Shown here in pieces: positions 2,155 to 60,140 of a stretch of DNA of 64,000 bases. The notes beneath the pieces are model-generated. The model had not been told where the DNA came from. It made no database searches and saw only the letters and a program-made list of their open reading frames with translations. The DNA comes from a virus. The position numbers were made by a program, and so were the translations under genes. The stretch lies in IMG/VR virus record IMGVR_UViG_3300047471_000466, positions 15,248 through 79,247 of that record. The stretch is one strand, 5' to 3'. Position 1 is the first letter of the stretch. Each line of letters begins with the position of its first letter.

Positions 2155-3358
2155 GACGATAGTAGCGGCGACGTTGGCGGCGGACAATAATTTACCTGTA
2201 TTAGTGGTTTGTCCCAAGTCTGGGATTACCATGTGGGAAAGGGCTTTAAGGGCGCAAGGCTGTAAAAGTCCGAGCGTCGTTAACTACGAGAAACTCCGCA
2301 CAGGTAAAACAATATTCGGACATTGGGCAGACGGGTTTAACAAAACATGGTTATGGAATTTGCCTACTGAAACGCTGATCATTTGGGACGAGGTTCAGAA
2401 ATGCAAAGGCATGAATACTCAAAATGCTCGCATGCTTTGGTCCGCAAAGCCTTATTATAATCTTTGTCTAAGCGCCACAGCCGCCGAGAATCCCACGGAC
2501 ATGAAAGCTCTGGGCTCTATTCTTGGAATCTTCAACATGCGAAACTTTTGGTTCTGGGCGAAGCAACACGGATGTCGGAACGGGTATTTTGGTGGGCTGG
2601 AGTTCTCAGGGGAAGACACCGACCTCGATAAAATTCACAAAGCCATTTATCCGATGCACGGTTCCCGCTTGTCTCTGGCAGACATGGCCGATCACTTTAC
2701 CGAAACTCAGATCATTACCACGCCCATCGATTTTGGCGAGAAGGTGAAAGAACTTTACGCGGAAATGGAATACGAGTTAGGAGAACTGGCAGAGAAGAAA
2801 ACGTATGATTCTACCGACAATGCCCTAACAATTCGTCTTAGAGCTAGACAGAAGGTTGAGTTACTAAAGGTACCGACCATGTTAGAGATGACTTTGGATC
2901 TTTTGGCGGAAGGGAGATCAGTAGTGCTGTTTGTAAATTTTACTCAAACTCTCGAAGCACTGAAGGAACGTCTTACAGAATACCCCACAGGAATTATCGC
3001 GGGCGGCTATGTAAAGGATCGCCAGAAATACGTGGACGAATTCGCGGCAGATAAACTTCGCGTGATGATCGCCAACATAGAAGCTGGGGGTACGTTGTTG
3101 AATCTGCAAGATCAAAGAGGCGAGTTTCCCAGAACCGCGCTGATTAGTCCGTCCGACAAGGCGATGGACGTTCTACAATGCATTGGGCGCATTCATCGAG
3201 CCGAAGGAAAAACCCCAACTCAGCAACACATTCTATTCGCCGCGGATACAATTGAGGAAGAAGTGAAAGAAAACTGTGATGAGAAAATTAAGAACATCGG
3301 GATCATGAACGCAGGGTTGACAGATCCGAAAATCGAAGCAAGTGTATCTATACAGTGA
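2030..3358 (+). CDS. Superfamily 2 (SNF2/DEAD-like) helicase
   Basis: Walker A GTGKT, Walker B WDEVQ, motif III SATA, motif VI QCIGRIHR. Confidence 0.9.
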   Translation: MKTRQEKRKKLYKIQEGHAEVLATALENFRSALDGSATGTGKTIVAATLAADNNLPVLVVCPKSGITMWERALRAQGCKSPSVVNYEKLRTGKTIFGHWADGFNKTWLWNLPTETLIIWDEVQKCKGMNTQNARMLWSAKPYYNLCLSATAAENPTDMKALGSILGIFNMRNFWFWAKQHGCRNGYFGGLEFSGEDTDLDKIHKAIYPMHGSRLSLADMADHFTETQIITTPIDFGEKVKELYAEMEYELGELAEKKTYDSTDNALTIRLRARQKVELLKVPTMLEMTLDLLAEGRSVVLFVNFTQTLEALKERLTEYPTGIIAGGYVKDRQKYVDEFAADKLRVMIANIEAGGTLLNLQDQRGEFPRTALISPSDKAMDVLQCIGRIHRAEGKTPTQQHILFAADTIEEEVKENCDEKIKNIGIMNAGLTDPKIEASVSIQ

Positions 3359-22094: not shown

Positions 22095-22262
22095 ATGAAT
22101 CTAATACCACTAATTCTACAAATCATCGCGCTGATCCTGTTGTTCATGGCTTCGATAGGAAAGAGTAATATCTTTTCTGGTAAGATGCAGACATTCCCGT
22201 TAGGGATGTTCTTCTGGTTGGCGAGTCTGATGGTTACCCTTGGAATCCACGAAGCGCACTAA
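22095..22262 (+). CDS. Small two-TM membrane protein (55 aa; not in the ORF track)
   Basis: MNLIPLILQIIALILLFMASIGK...FPLGMFFWLASLMVTLGIHEAH; TAATG coupling to the next gene. Confidence 0.65.
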   Translation: MNLIPLILQIIALILLFMASIGKSNIFSGKMQTFPLGMFFWLASLMVTLGIHEAH

Positions 22263-22453
22263 TGCCCGCTAAATCTGTAGCCCAGCGTCGTCTCATGGCC
22301 GCTGCTGAACATGGGGCCAGCTTTCCCATGGCCAAGCAGATTAGGAAATCCATGACTCATAAGCAGATGCACGATTTCGCCTCAACCCCAGAACAAGGGT
22401 TACCTAGAAAAAAGAAGAAACGCGGCCCGCTCTCGGATTACGAAATGCCGTGA
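22262..22453 (+). CDS. DUF3008-like small basic protein
   Basis: MPAKSVAQRR...SMTHKQMHDFAST...GLP.KKK. Confidence 0.7.
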   Translation: MPAKSVAQRRLMAAAEHGASFPMAKQIRKSMTHKQMHDFASTPEQGLPRKKKKRGPLSDYEMP

Positions 22454-23454
22454 GCTAGGAAGTGTTTCCAAAAAGGAAATCCTCGCTCGTTGTGTTTGTT
22501 TAAAGCCCTCTCGCCTCTGTGGCCTTGATTCTCCAGCAATAGTCTAATTCCTACTTCTGCCACTTCGACCACATTGTCGGGTTCTGCCTTCCATTGCTCG
22601 GGGGCCCATCGTATAACCGGAGATACGACAGAAGGAACGCCTACTGAAATCCCGTCTGCAGTAATCATATTAAAAGATTCAGTGTAGGAGAGTTGGAGTA
22701 AGAGATCCATTTTGCCAATAAGTTTTATGAATCGATCCCAGCTATCCCAATCATGTTTGATTAGTTCAACTGAGGGCAATCCTTCCACCATTTCTTCTAT
22801 GGCGGGCAGAGTTGTAGATTTACAGCCGTCGCCTCCGGTAGACATATGGAGTCTTAGCGGAACGTTTAACTGATTCTGTATCACCAGTGCTGCCGCAGCC
22901 GCGGTCATAAAATTTTTCTCAGGCCTGATCGCGCCGAAAGCCCCGATATTCAGAACGTCCGAATTCCATCGTTTTCCGTGGATGTGGCCGATAGGATACA
23001 GGTTTGGCAGTAAAACACAGTTCTCGTTGTAGACAGCCCGGAACCAATGAACAAACGAGTAGTTGTTTCCACCTACCATAAAGTTATCCACGGTCTCAGA
23101 GAATTCTGCATATAGGCGAAATAGCTTAATCGCGTTTGGATCCGCCTGTAGGAAGCCGATGTTCGAATGGGACAGAACCGCGAACTTAGTATGATGAAAG
23201 TGCCTGATAAGGCTTTTAAGATCGTGGAGAGTTAACCAGGGAGCGGAGATTACTACGTGGGTAAAAGGACGTAGTTGATGTCTCGCCTTATCCAGGATTT
23301 TTACCACATCCACATTATGTCTTACGGCAAAAGCTTCCGCGTCTATTCCTTTCCCCCGCAGGTATTTCGCCGTGGTGTACCCGGCTACGTTTAATCCTAC
23401 ACAACTAGATCGAACCCAGTGAGCGAAGTCTTTGAAGAATATGGCAAGTCTCAT
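22438..23454 (-). CDS. GT-B fold glycosyltransferase (GT4-like)
   Basis: GAFGAIRPEKN and MDLLLQLSYTESFNMITADGISVGVPSV; extended -10 TGcTATACT 8 nt upstream of the ATG. Confidence 0.75.
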   Translation of the reverse strand: MRLAIFFKDFAHWVRSSCVGLNVAGYTTAKYLRGKGIDAEAFAVRHNVDVVKILDKARHQLRPFTHVVISAPWLTLHDLKSLIRHFHHTKFAVLSHSNIGFLQADPNAIKLFRLYAEFSETVDNFMVGGNNYSFVHWFRAVYNENCVLLPNLYPIGHIHGKRWNSDVLNIGAFGAIRPEKNFMTAAAAALVIQNQLNVPLRLHMSTGGDGCKSTTLPAIEEMVEGLPSVELIKHDWDSWDRFIKLIGKMDLLLQLSYTESFNMITADGISVGVPSVVSPVIRWAPEQWKAEPDNVVEVAEVGIRLLLENQGHRGERALNKHNERGFPFWKHFLAHGIS

Positions 23455-23841
23455 GTGGTTTTAGTATAGCATGAAATTTCTAGAAAAAAATTTTTCTCTG
23501 TCGGTGATATACGCTCACACGCGGGACAGTATGGGGACGTGACGCGATAGGGGCGGGGCGGTCTGATGCAGCCCTAGTAGTGCAGACACGATCTGCACCC
23601 AGTAAAGGGTAAACGGATGAAGTCAGTAGGTAGTAGTAGGTAGTGAGATTTCTCTGGGGAATGTCAGACGCCTTGACAGTGTTGCGAGTAGCCTTGGCAC
23701 AGTGTAGTAGATGCAATCACTACATTCGGAAGGACGCAATAGCGAGTAGCTCAACAAGCGTAAGCAAACCTGCACAGCCCTCACTGAACGACGAATAGAC
23801 CAAACTTCAAGCCAGAAAAAGCCAGTGAACCTGTATCACTG

Positions 23842-24242
23842 AAGCACTGCTGCACTGACCTATGCATAACATACATAGGTTAGACAACATAGCGGAAGTT
23901 AGACATGTAGTTGAAGCTGTGCTGCTCCCCAAGCGGGGACAGTCAGCCATGACTGCAATCTATCGAAACGGGAGAACATTCGGAAAAGTGCCGATGCGCG
24001 CCTTCACAGGTAGCAAAGGTCGTTGCCGTGAGGCTTCACGTTGGGAATTCAATCCCCAAACGTTGAAGGAAGCGGAAGTTTTCCGGGGCAAGCGCGAAGA
24101 TCGTAGTAAGCACATTACTGCATGGTCACCTTGCCCAACTGCGCCAATCGAAACTCCAATGAGTTTTTACCAGCGCAATATGTTCAAACGTTTCCACCGT
24201 GTAGCCTCGTAAGAGGCTGCATAGGTCAGTGTAGTAATGCTT
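23842..24242 (+). ncRNA. Candidate structured RNA domain (~400 nt) closed by a 25-bp long-range helix
   Basis: 23842-23866 pairs with 24218-24242 at 24/25 positions (2 G-U); multiple internal hairpins; encloses a possible 87-aa ORF at 23949-24212. Confidence 0.55.
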
Positions 24243-24249
24243 ATTACAA

Positions 24250-24455
24250 CTTTGCGATATTGCTTCAATGTCGCATTGCACCAGTGATTCAAGGTCGCAT
24301 CCCTGAATTATTATGCGTTGGCTATAACAACGCTTTAAGGGTGAATGAGCATCACAACACTATGGGCACGCTAGGTGTTTAGTGTGACAGGCACGTTATG
24401 TGTCTGTCTGTGATTCTGCTAGGTCATATTGTTGCATTGGTGCAATGTCGCAAGG
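24250..24455 (+). ncRNA. Candidate structured RNA domain (~205 nt)
   Basis: 24250-24270 pairs with 24435-24455 at 20/21 positions (with G-U); internal hairpins such as gacaggcacg/tgtgtctgtc. Confidence 0.5.
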
Positions 24456-24548
24456 CTACATAGGTGAATAGTTTAATTCAACTAATGTTTTGTGGCGTTT
24501 GCGTGGTGCAACGGACTTGGCAGATAACAGACAGCGAAAGGAACAACT

Positions 24549-25019
24549 ATGGACAACCAAATTGTTCCCGCAAACTCTGTTACGTTGGCAGAGATTGATG
24601 AGTCGGAAGACTTGGGTCAATACAACAAGCCAACTGTGTCTGCGTTCATCGCAGCACAGCACGGCATCGTATTGTCCAAGGGCAATCGCAATCTCAAGTT
24701 TATTGTGGCTTCACTTGTGAAGTCCGGTAAAACTGAGGCGGCTGCAAAAGACCTCGTTAAACTCGGTCGCAAAGCGCATGATAAGCATGTTGCCGGATAT
24801 TACAAAAATATCCGTGCGGTCAATGCTGTCATTGCGGCAGACCCCGATTATCGCCAGTCCATGAAAGTCTGGCGCAATAAAAAGGGTGATCTTTGTGCCA
24901 ACACGATGTACCGCAAAGCGGGTGTCGTGTCCTCTGCAACGTATGAGGCAATGCGGGACGAATTGGCTGCGCTCAAGGCAATTGTGAAAACATTGCCTGC
25001 TGCGCCAGTCAAGGCGTAA
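24549..25019 (+). CDS. Hypothetical early protein (Ala/Lys-rich)
   Basis: SD gaaagga before the ATG; ends in a processing-type hairpin. Confidence 0.8.
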   Translation: MDNQIVPANSVTLAEIDESEDLGQYNKPTVSAFIAAQHGIVLSKGNRNLKFIVASLVKSGKTEAAAKDLVKLGRKAHDKHVAGYYKNIRAVNAVIAADPDYRQSMKVWRNKKGDLCANTMYRKAGVVSSATYEAMRDELAALKAIVKTLPAAPVKA

Positions 25020-25074
25020 ATCGGTGTCTGCTGCAATGCTCAATGGTAGCATTGCAGCAGCAATCGCTTTATGC
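25014..25074 (+). promoter_or_regulatory. Intergenic internal-loop hairpin H1 (RNase III-site-like)
   Basis: cggt-GT-ctgctgcaatgct-caatggt-agcattgcagcag-CA-atcg plus a lower stem containing the stop codon. Confidence 0.55.
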
Positions 25075-25147
25075 GAATGAAAAGTCTGAGGCTTTGGCCT
25101 TTGCCGCCAATATAAGACTCAGCATAGCGTTCGCATAAAGCACAACT

Positions 25148-25288
25148 GTGGAAAAGCTAATCGTCCAAATAATCCGACGACTTGACGCTCCATGCTATGG
25201 CGATTTGCCGCTAACTGCGGCTACTCTCGCCAATATCTTGGAGCAGGAGTTGCTGGATTATACTGTCGCCCAAGAGGCGAAACAATAG
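25148..25288 (+). CDS. Small hypothetical protein (46 aa; not in the ORF track)
   Basis: GTG 25148 to TAG, MEKLIVQIIRRLDAP...; followed by hairpin H2. Confidence 0.5.
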   Translation: MEKLIVQIIRRLDAPCYGDLPLTAATLANILEQELLDYTVAQEAKQ

Positions 25289-25290
25289 TT

Positions 25291-25327
25291 GCGGTGTCGG
25301 CTGCTCCTTAGGGAGCAGCTTGACCGC
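25291..25327 (+). promoter_or_regulatory. Intergenic internal-loop hairpin H2
   Basis: gcggt-GTC-ggctgctcc-ttag-ggagcagct-TG-accgc. Confidence 0.5.
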
Positions 25328-25486
25328 TATTACGCGGAATAGTTAGGCGACTTATCGCCTTGTGCGGCGCATGGAACGCCTGTGGGAAAGGGAGACTTGT
25401 CTCCATGAAACACATCCATGCCACAAGCCACAGTGTAACTCAGGCAGGTTCTTCAGCACCGTAAACCTTGAAAGTGAAAAACGGGC

Positions 25487-26335
25487 TTATTGTCGTAATG
25501 CGACACTGCTGCCTTGCAACAGGGTTCCGTGAAAAATTGGCACGGCGGAAAGCCAATACCGATGTTGCAAGGTAGCCAGTCGCATTGTGAAATGCCAGCG
25601 GCGGGCTAATAGCCGTGTGTCGAAAGATACCAAACAGAAGCAATGCGGCCTTCCGTCTCCTAAGGTGAGAGTGAGACACATATAGAACTGGGCGCACGTT
25701 GCGTCCACAAGCAGGTTCGTATGGTAAGAGTAACGGGCGGCGGCCATAGCTGCGTAAGGTTTCCCGACGCCTAGACGAATAGATGAAGACCTGACAACAG
25801 CGTGTAGGAGCGATTGAGGTTGATAGTTCCAATCAGCATTGCTCTGAATCTAAAACGAACGTGCTATCTCTGCGGCAGTCTCTTTTTGGTGATGGAGCCG
25901 TGGGTATGAAACCAACGCAGGTTGGGAAGCTGCGATATCAAGGTTCCGCAAATAGAACGATGCAATAATAGCATTGCGACGTGCTGCGGCGTGGATGGTT
26001 GCTATTCTATTCCACGCCGTAGTGGTCGCGGTGTAAAGAAGTTAACGGGTAAAGTCCACCCTTTTGTGGTTCCGTGCTTGCTCCTCTGCGACGTGAATGT
26101 TGCTACGATAATGCGCATCGTGTTGCGACACTGCAGCATTGTTTCAAGGTGCCATAATAAATTCAGGCAAGGCAGTCTGATACCTGTGAGCAATGCTGCA
26201 TAGCCGCAATACTCCCGATTGCAGCACAATCGGTGTCGGTATTGCAAGGCTGACCTAACAGCTACAATCAAATGGGCATAGCGGAAGTGTAGTTCCGCCT
26301 TGGTGTTTGCGACACACGCGGCATTACGACGGTAG
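25487..26335 (+). ncRNA. Candidate large structured non-coding RNA (~850 nt)
   Basis: No credible ORF; ends pair 15/15 (25487-25501 with 26321-26335); long internal helices rich in G-U pairs, a GAAA tetraloop and crossing helices. Confidence 0.65.
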
Positions 26336-26368
26336 TGCTGCGGAGCCGCAATTCTGCGGAAAAAGGGG

Positions 26369-26554
26369 GTGAGTTATATAAAAGCTGAAGTAAAAAACAA
26401 TACTTTGTTTATTGAGATTCCACTCCAAACACCCACGGCCAGCGGTTCGGGCAAGAATCTTGTGATTGCCTCGACTCACGGAATCACGGTGTCTGGAGCA
26501 TCTTTCAATGGCAATCCCGTCAAAATCGGGCTAAATGCCTTTGTGAAGGCGTAA
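26369..26554 (+). CDS. Small conserved beta-rich protein (SxSGKxxxIAST motif)
   Basis: L.IEIPL...SGSGKNLVIASTHG...KIGLNAF resembles a widespread uncharacterised small-protein family. Confidence 0.75.
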   Translation: MSYIKAEVKNNTLFIEIPLQTPTASGSGKNLVIASTHGITVSGASFNGNPVKIGLNAFVKA

Positions 26555-26602
26555 TTCTCGAAGTCGTGGCTCTGGCAACAGAGCCACGCATTCGGTAATT
26601 GT
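26551..26602 (+). promoter_or_regulatory. Intergenic internal-loop hairpin H3
   Basis: cgaa-GT-cgtggctctg-gcaa-cagagccacg-CA-ttcg. Confidence 0.55.
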
Positions 26603-26633
26603 AGTGAGTTCGATTGTGGACTTAAAATTACCA

Positions 26634-26811
26634 AGCCACGCATGGTAAACAAACCGTGCTGTTTGCAATCCTGTAAGCCGTGGCTAAATACTTTGTGTGA
26701 GTGAGATAATCAGGTGAGGTATGCGCTACCAAAATACTGACGATGGAAAAGCTGGTAAAGGATGAGGAGCGCAGGTTAATCCTTGGCTTGAATCCCTACC
26801 CACTCACACAA
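26634..26811 (+). ncRNA. Two adjacent candidate structured RNA modules
   Basis: agccacg/cgtggct (26634-26685) and perfect 11-bp ttgtgtgagtg/cactcacacaa (26693-26811) closing stems; non-coding. Confidence 0.45.
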
Positions 26812-26852
26812 TTCAATTTGCCGCGTGGCGGCTAACATGTAGGATAAATATT

Positions 26853-27026
26853 ATGAGTCCAATCATTCTTTTCCTTCGTGTTTTCGGGAAGAAAGACCCA
26901 ACTCAGACGACGGGTGATTTCAAGAATGAGTGCGGAAACCTCACTCAGGACAGGACATTCGTTGCTGAAGTGGAAGCTTTCGCCAAGAAAACTGGCATTA
27001 TTCCGGAAACCGAAGTCATCAGCTAA
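26853..27026 (+). CDS. Small hypothetical protein (57 aa; not in the ORF track)
   Basis: SD agga; MSPIILFLRVFGKKD...; stop codon lies in the stem of H4. Confidence 0.6.
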   Translation: MSPIILFLRVFGKKDPTQTTGDFKNECGNLTQDRTFVAEVEAFAKKTGIIPETEVIS

Positions 27027-27070
27027 TCGCTGTCGCAGCCTTGGAAACAGGGCTGCGCAAGCGGTGAGTT
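27021..27070 (+). promoter_or_regulatory. Intergenic internal-loop hairpin H4
   Basis: cgct-GT-cgcagccttg-gaaa-cagggctgcg-CA-agcg. Confidence 0.55.
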
Positions 27071-27072
27071 TT

Positions 27073-27255
27073 ATGAACGCGTATTACTACACGAACGTCA
27101 AAAACGTTCCCTTTTTAATGATGATAGTCTACGCCAAGGATATTGAAGAGGCCGATTGGTTTTTTCAAAAACAAACAGGCGTCAATCCGAATAAGAATTC
27201 ATTTATCACTTGTCGAATTGAGTTTAATTCGACTCCAATTGTATGGAAAAAATAA
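27073..27255 (+). CDS. Hypothetical protein
   Basis: Start revised to ATG 27073 (MNAYYYTNVK), directly after H4. Confidence 0.6.
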   Translation: MNAYYYTNVKNVPFLMMIVYAKDIEEADWFFQKQTGVNPNKNSFITCRIEFNSTPIVWKK

Positions 27256-28621: not shown

Positions 28622-28873
28622 TTCGTGGGTGAACGGTGAAAAACCTAGTAGCTAATGCGGAACGGAAGCTTGGTGAGCAACCCGTTAGTTCTAAAACACC
28701 AAAGCCCATGCACGGTTCTACGCTGTGCATGGGCAACCAATTTATGAAGGTAAAACTAACAGACAGAGTCGTAGACGTTGAAGTCGTTAGGATGAACACT
28801 CGCACAATGTGGGTTCGTCTTCCCGATGGAAACGTTATTAAACGTCATAAGCGCAAACATGTGGTGACAGAAA

Positions 28874-29320
28874 ATGAAGGACAATCGTGAACCAGAGTCG
28901 AATCCTTTAACAAAAAAAGAATTCGATGAAATTCTCAGGAGAACGGATGGCTTCGAGTCTTTCGTTCCTACTTGTGAAGATATCGTAAGATATCGTTCTC
29001 AAGCTACTCGGCTACTATTAAAGTTGCCTTGTTGGGGTTGTCCGGTGGAAGCCCAAATCACAAAAGTTGTGAATGGAGGAGAATACTTCGTGTATTCAAT
29101 CCTTGGTATGACAAACCACTGGGCTTGTATCCGCGAGGTAGAAATTTTATACATGTTTCCGCCTCAAGAGTTAACGGAACGAATTCGTGATTTAGAAACA
29201 CCCGTAGTAACTGTGGGAGAAGTGAAGAAAGTCCTAAAGAAAGCGGATAAAACTAACAAGCAAATAGGTAAAACATTAAAAGAGTTATTTGATGAACAAA
29301 CCAAGAAACAGAAACGTTAA
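28874..29320 (+). CDS. Hypothetical protein
   Basis: 148-aa ORF in the early-type run. Confidence 0.65.
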   Translation: MKDNREPESNPLTKKEFDEILRRTDGFESFVPTCEDIVRYRSQATRLLLKLPCWGCPVEAQITKVVNGGEYFVYSILGMTNHWACIREVEILYMFPPQELTERIRDLETPVVTVGEVKKVLKKADKTNKQIGKTLKELFDEQTKKQKR

Positions 29321-56149: not shown

Positions 56150-57012
56150 TCGTCGGAAAGCGTTTCTGTAAATGTTCCCGATCCCGTTGTGATAGGGAAT
56201 CCGCCGCCTCCAGCAAATGTATCGGTCGTCGTCCTAGTCGTTGCTGTAGTGACTATGGATTCAGAACAACCAAACGTAGTTCCACAGCCAATACAGGAAC
56301 TGTCTCCAAAGGTTCCGCTAGTATCAAACGTGGTTACTAGACCAACACAGCTAGTGAACACTTCATGGAAAGTGTAATGTCCATTTGATGAGCTAAATGC
56401 GCAGGTGTCTGGATCGTAGTCAGCCGTGTACGAACTGGTTGGCGTGAACGTTTTATCGTCGTATCTAGTGTGAACTCCCGGCGAACCGCAAATAGCACTA
56501 TAATCATCGCGAGTGTTGTAAGTGCATGTGGACTCTTTATGTAAAAATCTACGCCCACTTCCGTCGAAAGCATCAAACCCACACATACAATCAGGTAAAG
56601 GTGGCGGGCATGGGTTAGGATCACACGGGGTTCCATCGCCTTGATAAGTCCCCGTGCAATCAGCGGAAGTGGTTATTGTGCAACTTCCATCTTCAGCGCA
56701 GCACGCCCCCGTTAATATCGGCGGGATTGGTGGTAGCGGAACAACAGGAGCAAATCCTTCCGGACCGGCGGTAGGAGGATTCCCGAATAACAAATAGCCG
56801 TGCTCTAAACTACCATGCGCCTGTATACCATTGTTGCCTGTAAGCCTGAATTCACTGAAGGCTTGTTCCAAGTGTTCAATAGTAATGTCGCCTTGTCCTA
56901 TTGGCGGAAGTTTTCCAAAGCCCCCGTCGATTAGTCCGCCACCAGAAACTTGGATATTGAATTCTCTTACCCTGTTCGCCAAGTAATCAATGCGCTCTTG
57001 TTCAGTTTTCAC
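56134..57012 (-). CDS. Cys-rich virion-associated protein (GACC repeat), paralogue A
   Basis: TGACC.EDGSC...C..TYQGDGTPCDPNPC; shared HG.L..GY and GFAP.VP segments. Confidence 0.7.
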   Translation of the reverse strand: MKTEQERIDYLANRVREFNIQVSGGGLIDGGFGKLPPIGQGDITIEHLEQAFSEFRLTGNNGIQAHGSLEHGYLLFGNPPTAGPEGFAPVVPLPPIPPILTGACCAEDGSCTITTSADCTGTYQGDGTPCDPNPCPPPLPDCMCGFDAFDGSGRRFLHKESTCTYNTRDDYSAICGSPGVHTRYDDKTFTPTSSYTADYDPDTCAFSSSNGHYTFHEVFTSCVGLVTTFDTSGTFGDSSCIGCGTTFGCSESIVTTATTRTTTDTFAGGGGFPITTGSGTFTETLSDECIPI

Positions 57013-60000
57013 TGCATGACTACAGACTTAGTCTGGCACTTCCACATATTTGGTTCCTTTTCCGGAACAACTGAAGCGTCGATAATTCTGAGAGTCCCTA
57101 TCCACGGCCCGCCTACAAAGGCCGGAATATTAAACGCACTGACATTAAATAAAGCCCCTTGTCCGGATCCTCCACTCCCTGGAAAAGGACCGTATCCGCC
57201 AGGAGGAAAGTTGCCCGTACCATTTGCAGAAAGAGACCCAATTATTCCATGAATCGTACCAACATCGTAAACAGAGAGAACGGTAGTTTGCATCGTGTGT
57301 CCTCTGCCGTCCGACACTGTAATAGTTTCACCAGCGGTATACCCTCCCGCCGAACCAGGAGTATAAAGACTGGCTATTTGATAATTTCCAGGGGCGAGGC
57401 CATTTAACGCTCCAGTGTATTCAGAGGCCGATGGAGTGGTGGCGGGATAACTAAGTATTCCAAAACTAAACCCATCATGTAACACGTTTCTGGCATACTC
57501 CAATCCCGTAAGAGCTAAATTATTGATAATTACATCACCGGTAACAATTCTATCGTAAGTAATCGTTGGAGTTGAACTTGAATTAACCCACCACGTTCTG
57601 ATCACATGTTCGACAAGAACCGCGGTAGCGGCACGAGTGTAATACCCTGTTCCTGAAAATTGAAGATACCCCGGAAATCTGTATGGCCGGAATTCTCGCG
57701 TAATCAAAGCGGTATCTACACTATAGTATCGCGCCGGTTTATTCGTAGTCGTGAGCAACGAACGCCAAGTATCTATAGATTTGACCTCGCTTAACCCTGC
57801 GTATCCGGTATCAGAAGAGGGAGCCGTTCCTTTGGGCACCACCTGTTTGGTTTCGCTGTACTGAACCCGCATGTTGTCGTCCCATAACAAGCTAGGTAGA
57901 GCGGGCCAACCCAACCCATTTAATTGTTGGGTTTCCTTCAGGCTCATTCCATTACCCAAATCCTTAACTTCCGATCTAAGAACAACAAGTCCCTCATCCA
58001 AACTTTGAGAACCTAAAGCGAGAGTGCGAAGAATATTTGTATCGCCCCCACCAAATTCCTTAGTCAATTCTAGATTTACGAATGTCTTCGGCAACGAAAT
58101 TCCGCTTCGCGTTTCAAGGCGATCACGATACACAAACTCGTTTACCTGTTTCTCAGTGTGAGAAATATCACCAGTACCGAGAATTGGAAGCGCGGCGTTT
58201 CCAGGAATTAAAGACTCAGTAATCCTAGTCGGAACTGAAGCCTTGAATTCTGGCGGCACTAAATCAGGAATCGTTACTTCAAAGGAAGGTTCTGTAAATA
58301 AATTTTGAACCGTCCCCACATTACTCAAAGAAGTATTGTTTCCAAGATTAGTAACGTCTGCTTCAATGGTTAGAGCGTTGGGAGAAATCGTCTGGATACC
58401 AGAATTAAACGTTTCGACAACCGTTTCAATCTGTTTGTCTCGGGTCATCTTGTAGGAAACCAAAACAGTACGAACCACGTTTCCTCGAGTTTTAAGACTT
58501 ACGCGTTTCCAGAATTCTTTTTCTTGGGTTACCTTGGCTTCTAAATCTCCAGTGCCAAGTACCGGGATTGTTACAGGATTAGGAGAAGGTAGAGTGGCCG
58601 AGGATTCCGTTACTGGTACGGCAACGCGAAACCGTTCTGGTAGAAAATCTGGGATCGAGACAGTAAATTCTCTTCTATCAAATACGTCTACCGTCGTAGT
58701 GGTAGACTTAAGCGAGGTATTATTACCAAGATTATCAACAGATCCTTTTAGAAGGAGTTCGTTAGGTGAAAGAGTCTGTAATCCTGCCGCCAGAACTTCA
58801 GTAACCGTGGCGACTTGTTGCTCGGGCGTGAGTTCGTAACTCACCAAGGAGCGGGGTAGCTGGCCTATATCGCGGCCTTTAATCATTAACCGATGCCAAA
58901 ATTCTTTCGTCTGTTCGTCCCGCCTCATCAACTCTCCGGTTCCAAGAGCAGGAGGCGCAGCTGCTCCGGTAGACGTGTACGTAGTGGCGAAAACAGGAAT
59001 GGCTACTTTAAATTTTAACGGAACTGGATCAGGAATTTCTGCTTCATAAACCACCTGTGGGAAAACATCAGGTATGGTGGTAACACTTTTTATTGATTCA
59101 TTGTTACCTAGTTGGATAACGTCGGCTTCGATTAACAAAGGCGAAGGCGTGAAAGATTGTAGCCCTCTCGCCCAAGTCTCTGTAGTAGTGGACAACTGTT
59201 GCTCTGGTGTAAGGCGATATTCCAGCAGGGCGATAGGGGCGACAAGAAATCGAGAGGTAGTAGAGACTTGGTGCTTGTATAACGTAGTCTGGTGATCCGA
59301 AGCATCCCAATTCACGTCCGCCAAAGACGGGACATGGGCTTGTCCTGCCAGAGTTTGGGATATTTGAACTGAGGGAAGCGCCCCTAAAAATTTCCTATGT
59401 CGATAAGGAACTACGGCGTCATCGCGGCTGACTTTGTAAGCGGTTTCAGGGAAGACAGAATCGACAGTGGCGTTTGTGGTCTTGGCTTTAGCTGTCGTCT
59501 TACGCTCTAGCTTCGCCGATTCAGTTAGGGCGGTAACAACGGGGAAATCTGGAGCGATATCTTCTTGTTCGGCAACCGTAACTTCTTGTTGAAATTGATT
59601 GGTCTGATCGCTGATGATGATCGGACCGGGTAGTCGTTCATATGTCCGCTGTATGCCGACAAACAAGGCATCAAGTTCTGGTTGTTGTAGCCGGATAACC
59701 TTATGGTCGGTGAGAAATAAATCCCCGTACACGGGGTCCATAGTGTCCGCGTCAGGTTCTTTACTCCGCTGGTCCCCTCGGAGAAATACATAGGTCCGAG
59801 TTATAGTAGGGTAGTCTTTACTGGCGTAAGGATAGCTGATCTCAAAATTATATGCGTTCTGATTGCGCCTTTCATTTACGTAATACCAGTTCTCCCAACC
59901 AATCTGATCTAGTGATTTAATCGTGGCGAATTTGAAGTCGCAGAATTTTTCTGCGTTCGGCCCGTCGTATTTCGATCCTTGAAGAGGAACTTTATACCCC

Positions 60001-60140
60001 GCCTTGCGGCTATCCCGACGCACAACCAGAATTCGATCTCGAAGATTAGGTGTGGGAAACTCGGTAGAATTGGGCTTCCCTACAATAGCCAAGCTACCGC
60101 CTACATAAGATCGTTGAGGTTGGGATTTAGGGTCGGCCAT
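57009..60140 (-). CDS. Large tail structural protein with internal tandem repeats of about 125-130 aa
   Basis: Recurring Y.LT...Q..T..E....G.Q..LGNN.S...IPD..P..F...P...LGTG...Q..EF unit. Confidence 0.7.
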   Translation of the reverse strand: MADPKSQPQRSYVGGSLAIVGKPNSTEFPTPNLRDRILVVRRDSRKAGYKVPLQGSKYDGPNAEKFCDFKFATIKSLDQIGWENWYYVNERRNQNAYNFEISYPYASKDYPTITRTYVFLRGDQRSKEPDADTMDPVYGDLFLTDHKVIRLQQPELDALFVGIQRTYERLPGPIIISDQTNQFQQEVTVAEQEDIAPDFPVVTALTESAKLERKTTAKAKTTNATVDSVFPETAYKVSRDDAVVPYRHRKFLGALPSVQISQTLAGQAHVPSLADVNWDASDHQTTLYKHQVSTTSRFLVAPIALLEYRLTPEQQLSTTTETWARGLQSFTPSPLLIEADVIQLGNNESIKSVTTIPDVFPQVVYEAEIPDPVPLKFKVAIPVFATTYTSTGAAAPPALGTGELMRRDEQTKEFWHRLMIKGRDIGQLPRSLVSYELTPEQQVATVTEVLAAGLQTLSPNELLLKGSVDNLGNNTSLKSTTTTVDVFDRREFTVSIPDFLPERFRVAVPVTESSATLPSPNPVTIPVLGTGDLEAKVTQEKEFWKRVSLKTRGNVVRTVLVSYKMTRDKQIETVVETFNSGIQTISPNALTIEADVTNLGNNTSLSNVGTVQNLFTEPSFEVTIPDLVPPEFKASVPTRITESLIPGNAALPILGTGDISHTEKQVNEFVYRDRLETRSGISLPKTFVNLELTKEFGGGDTNILRTLALGSQSLDEGLVVLRSEVKDLGNGMSLKETQQLNGLGWPALPSLLWDDNMRVQYSETKQVVPKGTAPSSDTGYAGLSEVKSIDTWRSLLTTTNKPARYYSVDTALITREFRPYRFPGYLQFSGTGYYTRAATAVLVEHVIRTWWVNSSSTPTITYDRIVTGDVIINNLALTGLEYARNVLHDGFSFGILSYPATTPSASEYTGALNGLAPGNYQIASLYTPGSAGGYTAGETITVSDGRGHTMQTTVLSVYDVGTIHGIIGSLSANGTGNFPPGGYGPFPGSGGSGQGALFNVSAFNIPAFVGGPWIGTLRIIDASVVPEKEPNMWKCQTKSVVMQ

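Follow-up and report, generated by a model that had tools for sequence, protein, structure and literature searches.

The 79,247-bp phage genome in IMG/VR record IMGVR_UViG_3300047471_000466 carries direct terminal repeats; the window analyzed here, 64,000 nt long, corresponds to bases 15248–79247 of this record, and positions below are window positions unless another contig is named. At about 23.8–27.1 kb of the window, in the apparent early region of the phage, short plus-strand genes are interspersed with a dense cluster of RNA hairpins that we consider a genuine case of selected plus-strand RNA structure. Identical sequence is also present in rhizosphere and soil metagenomes, and no RNA run is among the sequencing runs listed as carrying it. 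The phage is far removed from isolates (DNA polymerase ~25% identical to that of the nearest isolate, RIIA ~27–31%) and encodes helicase, primase, ribonucleotide reductase, RIIA/RIIB and tail fibres. Domain searches of the genome detected neither an RNase III nor a reverse transcriptase domain; a T7-type RNA polymerase domain was not found either, a weak negative given that the control search matched in 0 control genomes.

The locus begins at a divergent junction, with the last minus-strand gene ending at 23454 and almost all of the credible genes from there to ~43 kb in plus-strand orientation; the first of these form a series of small orphan open reading frames (ORFs). From this position and layout, together with the gene content, we infer that the plus-strand cluster is the early region. 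Between 23.9 and 30 kb, all credible genes are on the plus strand, with hairpins in between. The coding share of 23.8–27.1 kb is ~32%, and the four likely genes (23949–24212, 24549–25019, 25148–25288 and 26369–26554) are followed by spacers of 336, 128, 1080 and 298 nt, respectively, which bears out the description of the region as poor in ORFs in an earlier reading made from the sequence alone (hereafter, the sequence-only reading). Searches of PHROG and Pfam produced nothing for any ORF of the region, and none of the ORFs within the 1080-nt spacer showed coding signal or homologues. The features of the locus are as follows (LLR, log-likelihood ratio; MFE, minimum free energy).

23455–23553, no strand assigned: divergent intergenic region, presumed promoter zone from the ORF map, holding an A/T palindrome at 23482–23499.
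23554–23676, plus strand: structured leader element (Lfold, −42.8 kcal/mol).
23842–23866, plus strand: 5' arm of a long-range helix that pairs with 24218–24242 (25 nt, 88% complementary).
23855–23883, plus strand: local hairpin that competes for 23855–23866 (pair probability ~0.38).
23949–24212, plus strand: probable ORF for a very basic 87-aa protein, inside the long-range helix (weak codon score; the longest reading of the frame starts at 23862).
24199–24222, plus strand: hairpin with a GUAA loop, within which lies the stop of the 87-aa ORF (hairpin energy −16.5 kcal/mol on the plus and −10.1 on the minus strand).
24218–24242, plus strand: 3' arm of the long-range helix, from its score and pair probability.
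24253–24275, plus strand: 10-bp local hairpin (pair probability ~1.0).
24405–24534, plus strand: H1, leader hairpin of 130 nt whose 3' end is 15 nt ahead of the ATG of the 156-aa gene (z −9.6).
24549–25019, plus strand: 156-aa early gene, real and under purifying selection (codon LLR 29.2; homologues of 87–90% identity).
25014–25074, plus strand: stop-codon-anchored two-tier hairpin (−33.2 kcal/mol), with the deletion breakpoint of a relative exactly at 25074.
25062–25145, plus strand: second hairpin, with a perfect 12-bp lower stem (−33.8 kcal/mol).
25148–25288, plus strand: probable 46-aa ORF, accessory (codon LLR 8.8; one relative lacks it, skipping from 25074 to 25488).
25289–26368, plus strand: ORF-free array of hairpin modules, 1080 nt (MFE −427.5 kcal/mol on the plus and −358 on the minus strand).
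25484–25597, plus strand: unit A, long hairpin in which stems of 12 and 14 bp are combined with an internal loop and a branched tip (kept by relatives X4 and X5).
25976–26030, plus strand: strong hairpin (−36.3 kcal/mol on the plus and −23.9 on the minus strand).
26106–26233, plus strand: unit B, a paralogue of unit A (repeat D3), retained in relatives.
26318–26360, plus strand: two small hairpins (26318–26341 and 26345–26360) upstream of the 61-aa gene, from folding.
26369–26554, plus strand: 61-aa gene; the family of small phage proteins to which it belongs is widespread (E ≤ 1e-3, 324 representative clusters).
26553–26600, plus strand: stop-codon-anchored two-tier hairpin (−25.4 kcal/mol).
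26853–27026, plus strand: plausible 57-aa ORF (codon LLR 8.6).
27027–27066, plus strand: stop-anchored hairpin followed by an ATG at 27073, from folding.

The excess of structure was assessed by folding 200-nt windows. After correction for GC content, no 3.3-kb block of the 64-kb window is more stable, on either strand, than the one that starts at 24201. Against dinucleotide shuffles, windows across 23801–27100 have a mean z of −3.5 on the plus strand and −2.6 on the minus strand (range for single windows, −2 to −9.6), compared with −0.8 and 0.0, respectively, for 42 control windows elsewhere; the excess goes on, weaker, to ~30 kb. The exceptional structure that the sequence-only reading had attributed to ~3.3 kb of this DNA is thus confirmed, and the local hairpins it named are all present (23855–23883, 24199–24222, 24253–24275, 25494–25504 paired with 25579–25589, and 26318–26341). 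Lfold resolves the region into a string of local elements, each spanning at most 130 nt. There was no Rfam match at the gathering score in the window, with only chance-level matches at E ≤ 10 in 23–30 kb, which agrees with the earlier failure to recognize a described system.

Two families of hairpins can be distinguished. In the first, the hairpin is anchored on a stop codon: at each of the first four early genes, the 84 nt that begin just ahead of the stop have folding energies of −33 to −36 kcal/mol, whereas the same stretch at most other genes of the phage folds at ~−10 to −20 kcal/mol. The shared shape, from the base upward, consists of a lower stem containing TAA, a small internal loop, a middle stem of 4–5 bp, a 2x2 loop, an upper stem of 10–13 bp and a tetraloop, giving 19–25 pairs in two or three tiers. 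A U tract is missing after most of these early elements; a canonical terminator occurs elsewhere, after RIIB.

The second family comprises H1, A and B, which are hairpins of 100–130 nt with 38–51 pairs and internal loops. H1 folds at −59.3 kcal/mol on the plus strand, compared with −35.5 on the minus strand, and includes 11 G-U among its 51 pairs. A 37-nt sequence of the 5' arm is common to all three; a profile of this arm found no comparable copy outside the region in the 79-kb genome, and its other matches were sub-threshold (E 0.03–2), among them 24267–24294 and 25036–25058 within the region. A promoter reading of the arm was dropped, given the lack of consistent −35/−10 spacing by eye. A covariance model built from unit A alone recovers B at E 2e-6 but not H1, and relatives only marginally. 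Homologous pairs were counted from each copy's own fold; the MAFFT alignment of A and B shifts the 3' arm by one column, so that RNAalifold under-counts pairs. Between A and B, 17 pairs are unchanged, 5 changed on one side (all via G-U) and 6 are compensatory; between A and H1, the respective numbers are 8, 8 and 7. Covariation of this kind among paralogues, thinner than covariation among orthologues, is nevertheless real evidence that the fold is maintained; in our reading, the three hairpins arose by duplication and retained their pairing via compensatory changes. A and B also have conserved sequence in their unpaired loops, namely, the segments AAAUU and AUACC. An 18-nt motif of these two units had 7 chance matches in viral contigs, with no further similarity.

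The strand on which selection acts is indicated by the imperfect pairs. The 17 defined hairpins contain 37 G-U pairs compared with 2 single A-C mismatches on the plus strand, all 13 that lie inside the region are more stable as plus-strand RNA, and the summed energy of the 17 is −515.7 kcal/mol on the plus and −430.2 on the minus strand. The argument rests on these defined hairpins and not on bulk energy, because bulk asymmetry is about the same elsewhere; likewise, the difference between plus and minus z is about equal in the region and in the controls. Accordingly, the earlier claim that G-U dominance points to selection on plus-strand RNA stands for the defined hairpins, which support selected structures in the apparent early region, and fails at the level of bulk energy.

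The same numbers bear on the possibility that the inverted repeats act as DNA, as a replication origin, a packaging or injection signal or clustered operators, with RNA folding incidental. The divergent junction with its A/T palindrome, the structure of the minus strand and the short repeated motifs would fit such a role: TGTCGCA/TGCGACA recurs in the region, as does GCAATG/CATTGC, both partly self-complementary, and CATAGGT is found at 23875, 24220 and 24459 and, inverted, at 23857, forming an operator-like palindrome, ACCTATG-N9-CATAGGT, at 23856–23882. Selection at the DNA level, however, should yield G-U and A-C equally, which disfavours it given the observed 37 and 2; neither this bias nor the systematic excess of plus-strand over minus-strand stability would be a product of such selection, the hairpins sit on the stop and start codons of plus-strand genes, and the same bias recurs in a distant relative described below. 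We therefore consider a DNA-level role very unlikely. Other repeats in the region include a perfect 12-nt direct repeat, CATAGCGGAAGT, at 23888–23899 and 26277–26288, 2.4 kb apart, to which the CATAGGT motif is related; short-period tandem repeats are absent.

The sequence-only reading had also proposed three long-range closing helices in competition with local hairpins. Ungapped helices with 80–1300 nt between the arms were scored against 12 dinucleotide shuffles of the region. The helix 23842–23866/24218–24242 (22 Watson-Crick pairs, 2 G-U pairs and 1 mismatch) scores 24, above all 12 shuffles (maximum 19.5), and the partition function assigns it a probability of ~0.6 as against ~0.38 for the local hairpin 23855–23883, so that the module 23842–24242 is predicted to be bistable. 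The other two closures did not hold up: 24250–24270/24435–24455 and 25488–25501/26321–26334 score 18 and 14.5, both within the range of the shuffles, and their predicted probability is 0.00, whereas H1, the unit A stem and the hairpins 24253–24275 and 26318–26341 are predicted at 0.9–1.0. The alternative pairings read by eye arise mostly because the duplicated hairpin arms resemble each other and motifs recur, so that cross-pairing follows by construction. By the same scoring, 20 nt within the 156-aa gene (24830–24849) are a potential partner of 25019–25038, the 5' arm of the hairpin anchored on the stop codon of this gene, with a score of 20, marginally above the shuffles; the coding sequence of the gene is itself unusually structured, at z ~−4 in every 200-nt window.

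In close relatives (80–95% identical, from two further metagenomes and available as short contigs only), units A and B are kept, and neighbouring pieces are skipped or replaced; the indels are 25074→25488, 25361→25488/9, 26213→26344, 24153→24350, 26690→26852 and 26698→27020. At 25361→25488/9, the missing piece is replaced by 27 nt that form a small hairpin of their own. Roughly 9–10 of the 18 breakpoint ends lie within ~5 nt of a hairpin edge, in a region where hairpins are dense: 25074 is the last base of a stop-anchored hairpin, the unit A stem (25493) lies 5 nt downstream of 25488, and the unit B stem ends 1 nt before 26213. In relative X5, the deletion 26213→26344 places unit B ~155 nt upstream of the start of the 61-aa gene, compared with 286 nt here, and thus shifts it towards the position that H1 holds before the 156-aa gene. 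The stretch 25658–25788 is poorly conserved in relatives.

Such modular indels point to an array of independent hairpin modules rather than a single integrated 1-kb RNA. A giant ornate non-coding RNA, akin to GOLLD, ROOL or OLE and comprising 25289–26368 or 25487–26335, would be in line with the MFE of the 1080 nt and with an 8-bp closure, 25333–25340/26351–26358, that reaches a probability of 0.97 when the 1-kb piece is folded alone; this closure arises only from the choice of where the piece was cut, and its helix score is at chance level. The other long-range helices of the stretch are at chance level too, only local hairpins of ≤130-nt span are found, relatives delete or replace internal pieces of 126–413 nt, and no Rfam match appeared even at E ≤ 10. 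We regard a single giant RNA as extremely unlikely.

A more distant comparison is provided by L089, a contig that is part of an 83-kb genome and was found via an alignment of RIIA (42% identical), with synteny on both sides of the region. The equivalent stretch, L089:1445–4750, has no blastn similarity to the region, and its small ORFs are non-homologous save one pair. The L089 island is nonetheless structured, with plus-strand z of −2.5 to −5.8, stronger than on the minus strand, and 24 G-U pairs compared with 2 A-C mismatches. A structure of −52 kcal/mol immediately precedes its first ORF, each early ORF is bordered by large hairpins, which follow stop codons and precede start codons, and there is an ORF-free, hairpin-rich leader of ~730 nt (L089:1500–2232). 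A few stem motifs are common to the two phages, for example, GTCGCAAGGCTA and CGTGGTGCAACGG. Because L089 has the same architecture around non-homologous ORFs, the hairpin trait is preserved through the turnover of genes. In two genomes at a still greater distance, the small-ORF regions have weaker plus-strand structure. Other searches added little: blastn of the region against GenBank phages had no match, the 156-aa gene was not found in viral or metagenome contigs, RIIA as a single-protein query found nothing in viral contigs, and the RIIA alignment retrieved only 1–2-kb fragments from metagenome contigs. Contigs in ENA and NCBI encode the 87–90% identical homologues of the 156-aa gene and, in addition, RIIA proteins of 75–88% identity. 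Another relative, with an 87% identical terminase (G001), is a fragment without this part of the genome.

The turnover of genes within a constant architecture raises the possibility that the hairpins are boundaries of exchangeable gene cassettes, similar to promoter-early stem-loop (PeSL) elements, in which terminator-like stem-loops and promoters allow recombination to shuffle accessory genes. About half of the breakpoint ends between close relatives fall near hairpin edges, the early ORFs are non-homologous to those of L089 within the same architecture, hairpin sequences repeat in the region, and there is the PeSL precedent (PMC2839356). Set against this, a scan with the sigma-70 consensus, which may not be that of the host, revealed 0 plus-strand promoter-like sites in 23.4–27 kb; in 7.5 kb, the scan found 6 sites compared with 10 expected, fewer than in shuffles, and no sigma-70-like promoters stand beside the hairpins. 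Most hairpins also lack U tracts, and compensatory changes and the G-U bias reflect selection on an RNA fold that recombination sites do not need. Cassette exchange is compatible with the processing reading set out below, not exclusive of it, and as the explanation of the hairpins we consider it unlikely.

A different role is suggested by the ORF-free modules, especially A, B and their neighbours at 25289–26368, which might be genes for trans-acting structured RNAs made early: decoys or sponges of double-stranded RNA (dsRNA) for host nucleases, immune sensors or RNA-binding proteins, or precursors of small RNAs. To this would point the lack of coding signal over 1080 nt of a phage genome that is compact, the retention of A and B in relatives while their flanks change, the loop sequences kept between them and the strong plus-strand structure. 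Yet the third member of the family, H1, is a 5' leader 15 nt before a gene, and the X5 deletion brings B into a more leader-like position nearer the 61-aa gene; moreover, no promoter/terminator pairs bound separate RNA genes, Rfam has no match, and the L089 hairpins flank ORFs, with no comparable ORF-free array in mid-cluster, though with the ~730-nt leader. We deem trans-acting RNA genes possible, if on balance improbable. In a bolder version, which we would call unlikely, H1, A, B and the 1-kb array would be released from the early transcript and act in trans, for example, as dsRNA decoys to swamp or misdirect an RNase of the host or a defence that senses RNA; the conserved loops would be a specific protein-binding site, and the fold-back at 23842–24242 a timing switch. 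If true, this would amount to an RNA-based module of host takeover, with an architecture conserved across an uncultivated clade of ~80-kb phages.

The genes set among the hairpins differ in how well they are supported. In the 156-aa gene, 16 of the 20 listed population variants are at third codon positions, and in the 87-aa ORF, 9 of the 16 variants listed in relatives are; the AlphaFold model of the 156-aa protein (mean pLDDT 53.5) was too poor for a fold search. The 61-aa family has the consensus ...IEIDLE.PTPS.SGKTLVVASTHGN...IGLNAYIKP. Its homologues align from residue 4, so that translation may in fact begin at a non-ATG codon near 26378 and not at the GTG at 26369, and the N-terminal extensions of many database homologues look spurious. 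A specific coupling of this family to the hairpins was considered and rejected, as ordinary rho-independent terminators precede the gene in other phages. A 60-aa ORF, 27073–27255, starts with an ATG directly after the hairpin 27027–27066, in the context UUUUAUGAA; the longest-ORF gene call overlooks it because the frame is open from 26878. Similar starts, a hairpin followed by UUUAUGA, are seen at 28744 and 29741 and in the L089 ORFs at 3070, 3393, 4047 and 4690. A minus-strand 130-aa ORF at 25440–25832 was discarded as a gene, having no homologue and not being called in this genome. Within the ORF-free kilobase, a mini-ORF of 20 codons (25906–25968) begins MKPTQ, within a 12-nt string, TATGAAACCAAC, that recurs at L089:4689–4700, where it opens a 102-aa ORF homologous to the 148-aa gene at 28874–29320 of the present phage; the mini-ORF may be what remains of a gene start that was lost or duplicated.

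Farther from the hairpins, a minus-strand 338-aa glycosyltransferase-like gene has relatives on unrelated large contigs. A plus-strand 63-aa ORF (22262–22453) overlaps the end of this gene and is 73% identical to L089:901–1092, far better conserved there than anything in the early region; the 338-aa gene seems to have been inserted beside this ORF in the present phage. The 1043-aa virion protein (57009–60140) has a homologue in G001 (L081/L082, ~37.0–40.8 kb) with ~9 tandem copies of a segment that matches 58056–59246 of the window, at a spacing of ~381 nt, an expansion of a repeat domain in a structural protein.

Taken together, the arrangement appears to be best interpreted as a set of cis-acting processing and stability hairpins of the early mRNA, of the kind cut by RNase III in phage T7; we give this interpretation about an even chance of being correct, and nuclease processing is, in our analysis, the most plausible function. 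Short early genes would be set apart by very stable hairpins of the two families, and the irregular dsRNA stems of 20–25 bp would either be cut by a host double-strand-specific endonuclease of the RNase III type or block exonucleases. By either route, cistrons would be separated and protective hairpins left at the 3' and 5' ends of the mRNAs. The 1-kb ORF-free stretch would then represent an array of modules that have lost or exchanged their genes, rather than a single large RNA, and the 25-bp fold-back at 23842–24242 may gate translation of the small basic ORF that it encloses. The failure to find an RNase III, reverse transcriptase or T7-type RNA polymerase in the phage is counted in favour of cis-acting hairpins served by a host nuclease.

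Several observations weigh against such processing hairpins. The bulk asymmetry is not specific to the region and is similar elsewhere in the genome, minus-strand genes included; the minus strand of the region is structured as well, hairpins being strand-symmetric by nature. The covariation comes from three paralogues of one genome and not from many orthologues, and the conserved A/B loops could hint at a specific protein partner instead of a generic dsRNase. The T7 RNase III sites are shorter, ~50–60 nt, and T7 is not known to have a counterpart of the 1-kb gene-free hairpin array.

If processing by a host nuclease is nevertheless the function, an uncultivated clade of soil phages would organize its early expression by dense RNA structure and not by tight gene packing, and the hairpin families would be ready candidates for strong stabilizers of mRNA ends. 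The conserved architecture and the indels, about half of whose ends lie near hairpin edges, suggest, in addition, that the hairpins mark exchange units of early genes, and the predicted bistable fold-back would be a compact candidate for a translational switch.

Among known systems, three were set aside on direct grounds: TIGR arrays, as there are no short-period tandem repeats; retrons, as the genome has no reverse transcriptase; and N4-type hairpin promoters, as searches of PHROG, Pfam and a phage database gave no match to the 2461-aa protein and no T7-type RNA polymerase domain was found. What the region has in common with the GOLLD, ROOL and OLE RNAs is a long stretch of a phage genome that is highly structured and free of ORFs; it differs from them in the absence of a covariance-model match and of a supported long-range architecture and in the gain and loss of internal modules between close relatives.

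The likeness to hok/sok, to which the sequence-only reading had pointed as a precedent, is confined to the module 23842–24242, which pairs its 5' and 3' ends over 25 bp around a small ORF while a local hairpin competes for the 5' arm. Here, however, the enclosed ORF encodes an 87-aa basic protein, rich in Arg and Lys with no hydrophobic segment, instead of a small hydrophobic toxin, and the other modules lack such competition, so that only the fold-back with its competing hairpin is left of that analogy. Neither an antisense RNA gene nor a mok-like overlapping frame was seen, and the sigma-70 scan lists no minus-strand promoter-like sites in 23.8–24.3 kb, although no dedicated antisense search was made.

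In the PeSL regulatory cassettes, which occur in hyperplastic regions of T4-type phages, repeated stem-loops bound exchangeable early ORFs (PMC2839356, PMC4122927). Here, too, repeated stem-loops flank small accessory early ORFs; about half of the breakpoint ends between close relatives lie near an element, in a region dense with them. Unlike PeSL elements, the stem-loops of this phage have no sigma-70-type promoter beside them (a weak negative, given that the consensus may not be that of the host), most stems lack the U tract of an intrinsic terminator, and the stems are much longer than PeSL terminators and carry RNA-level covariation and a G-U bias.

The closest parallel is phage T7, where five RNase III signals occur in an early precursor RNA of ~7000 nt (PMC3867540). 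As in T7, the elements described here are irregular dsRNA hairpins with internal loops, of about two helical turns (~20 bp) or more, and the copies are mutually related; they are located between the cistrons of a same-strand cluster, early by its position and gene content, that in T7 is transcribed by the host polymerase and presumably would be so here, and a hairpin remaining at an mRNA end would stabilize that mRNA. The five T7 signals, R0.3, R0.5, R1, R1.1 and R1.3, have no sequence similarity to the present predicted hairpins, which are longer (to 130 nt) and far more numerous, and in some cases are placed exactly on stop codons. Should the parallel be correct, the T7 paradigm would be extended to stop-codon-anchored hairpins and gene-free hairpin arrays.

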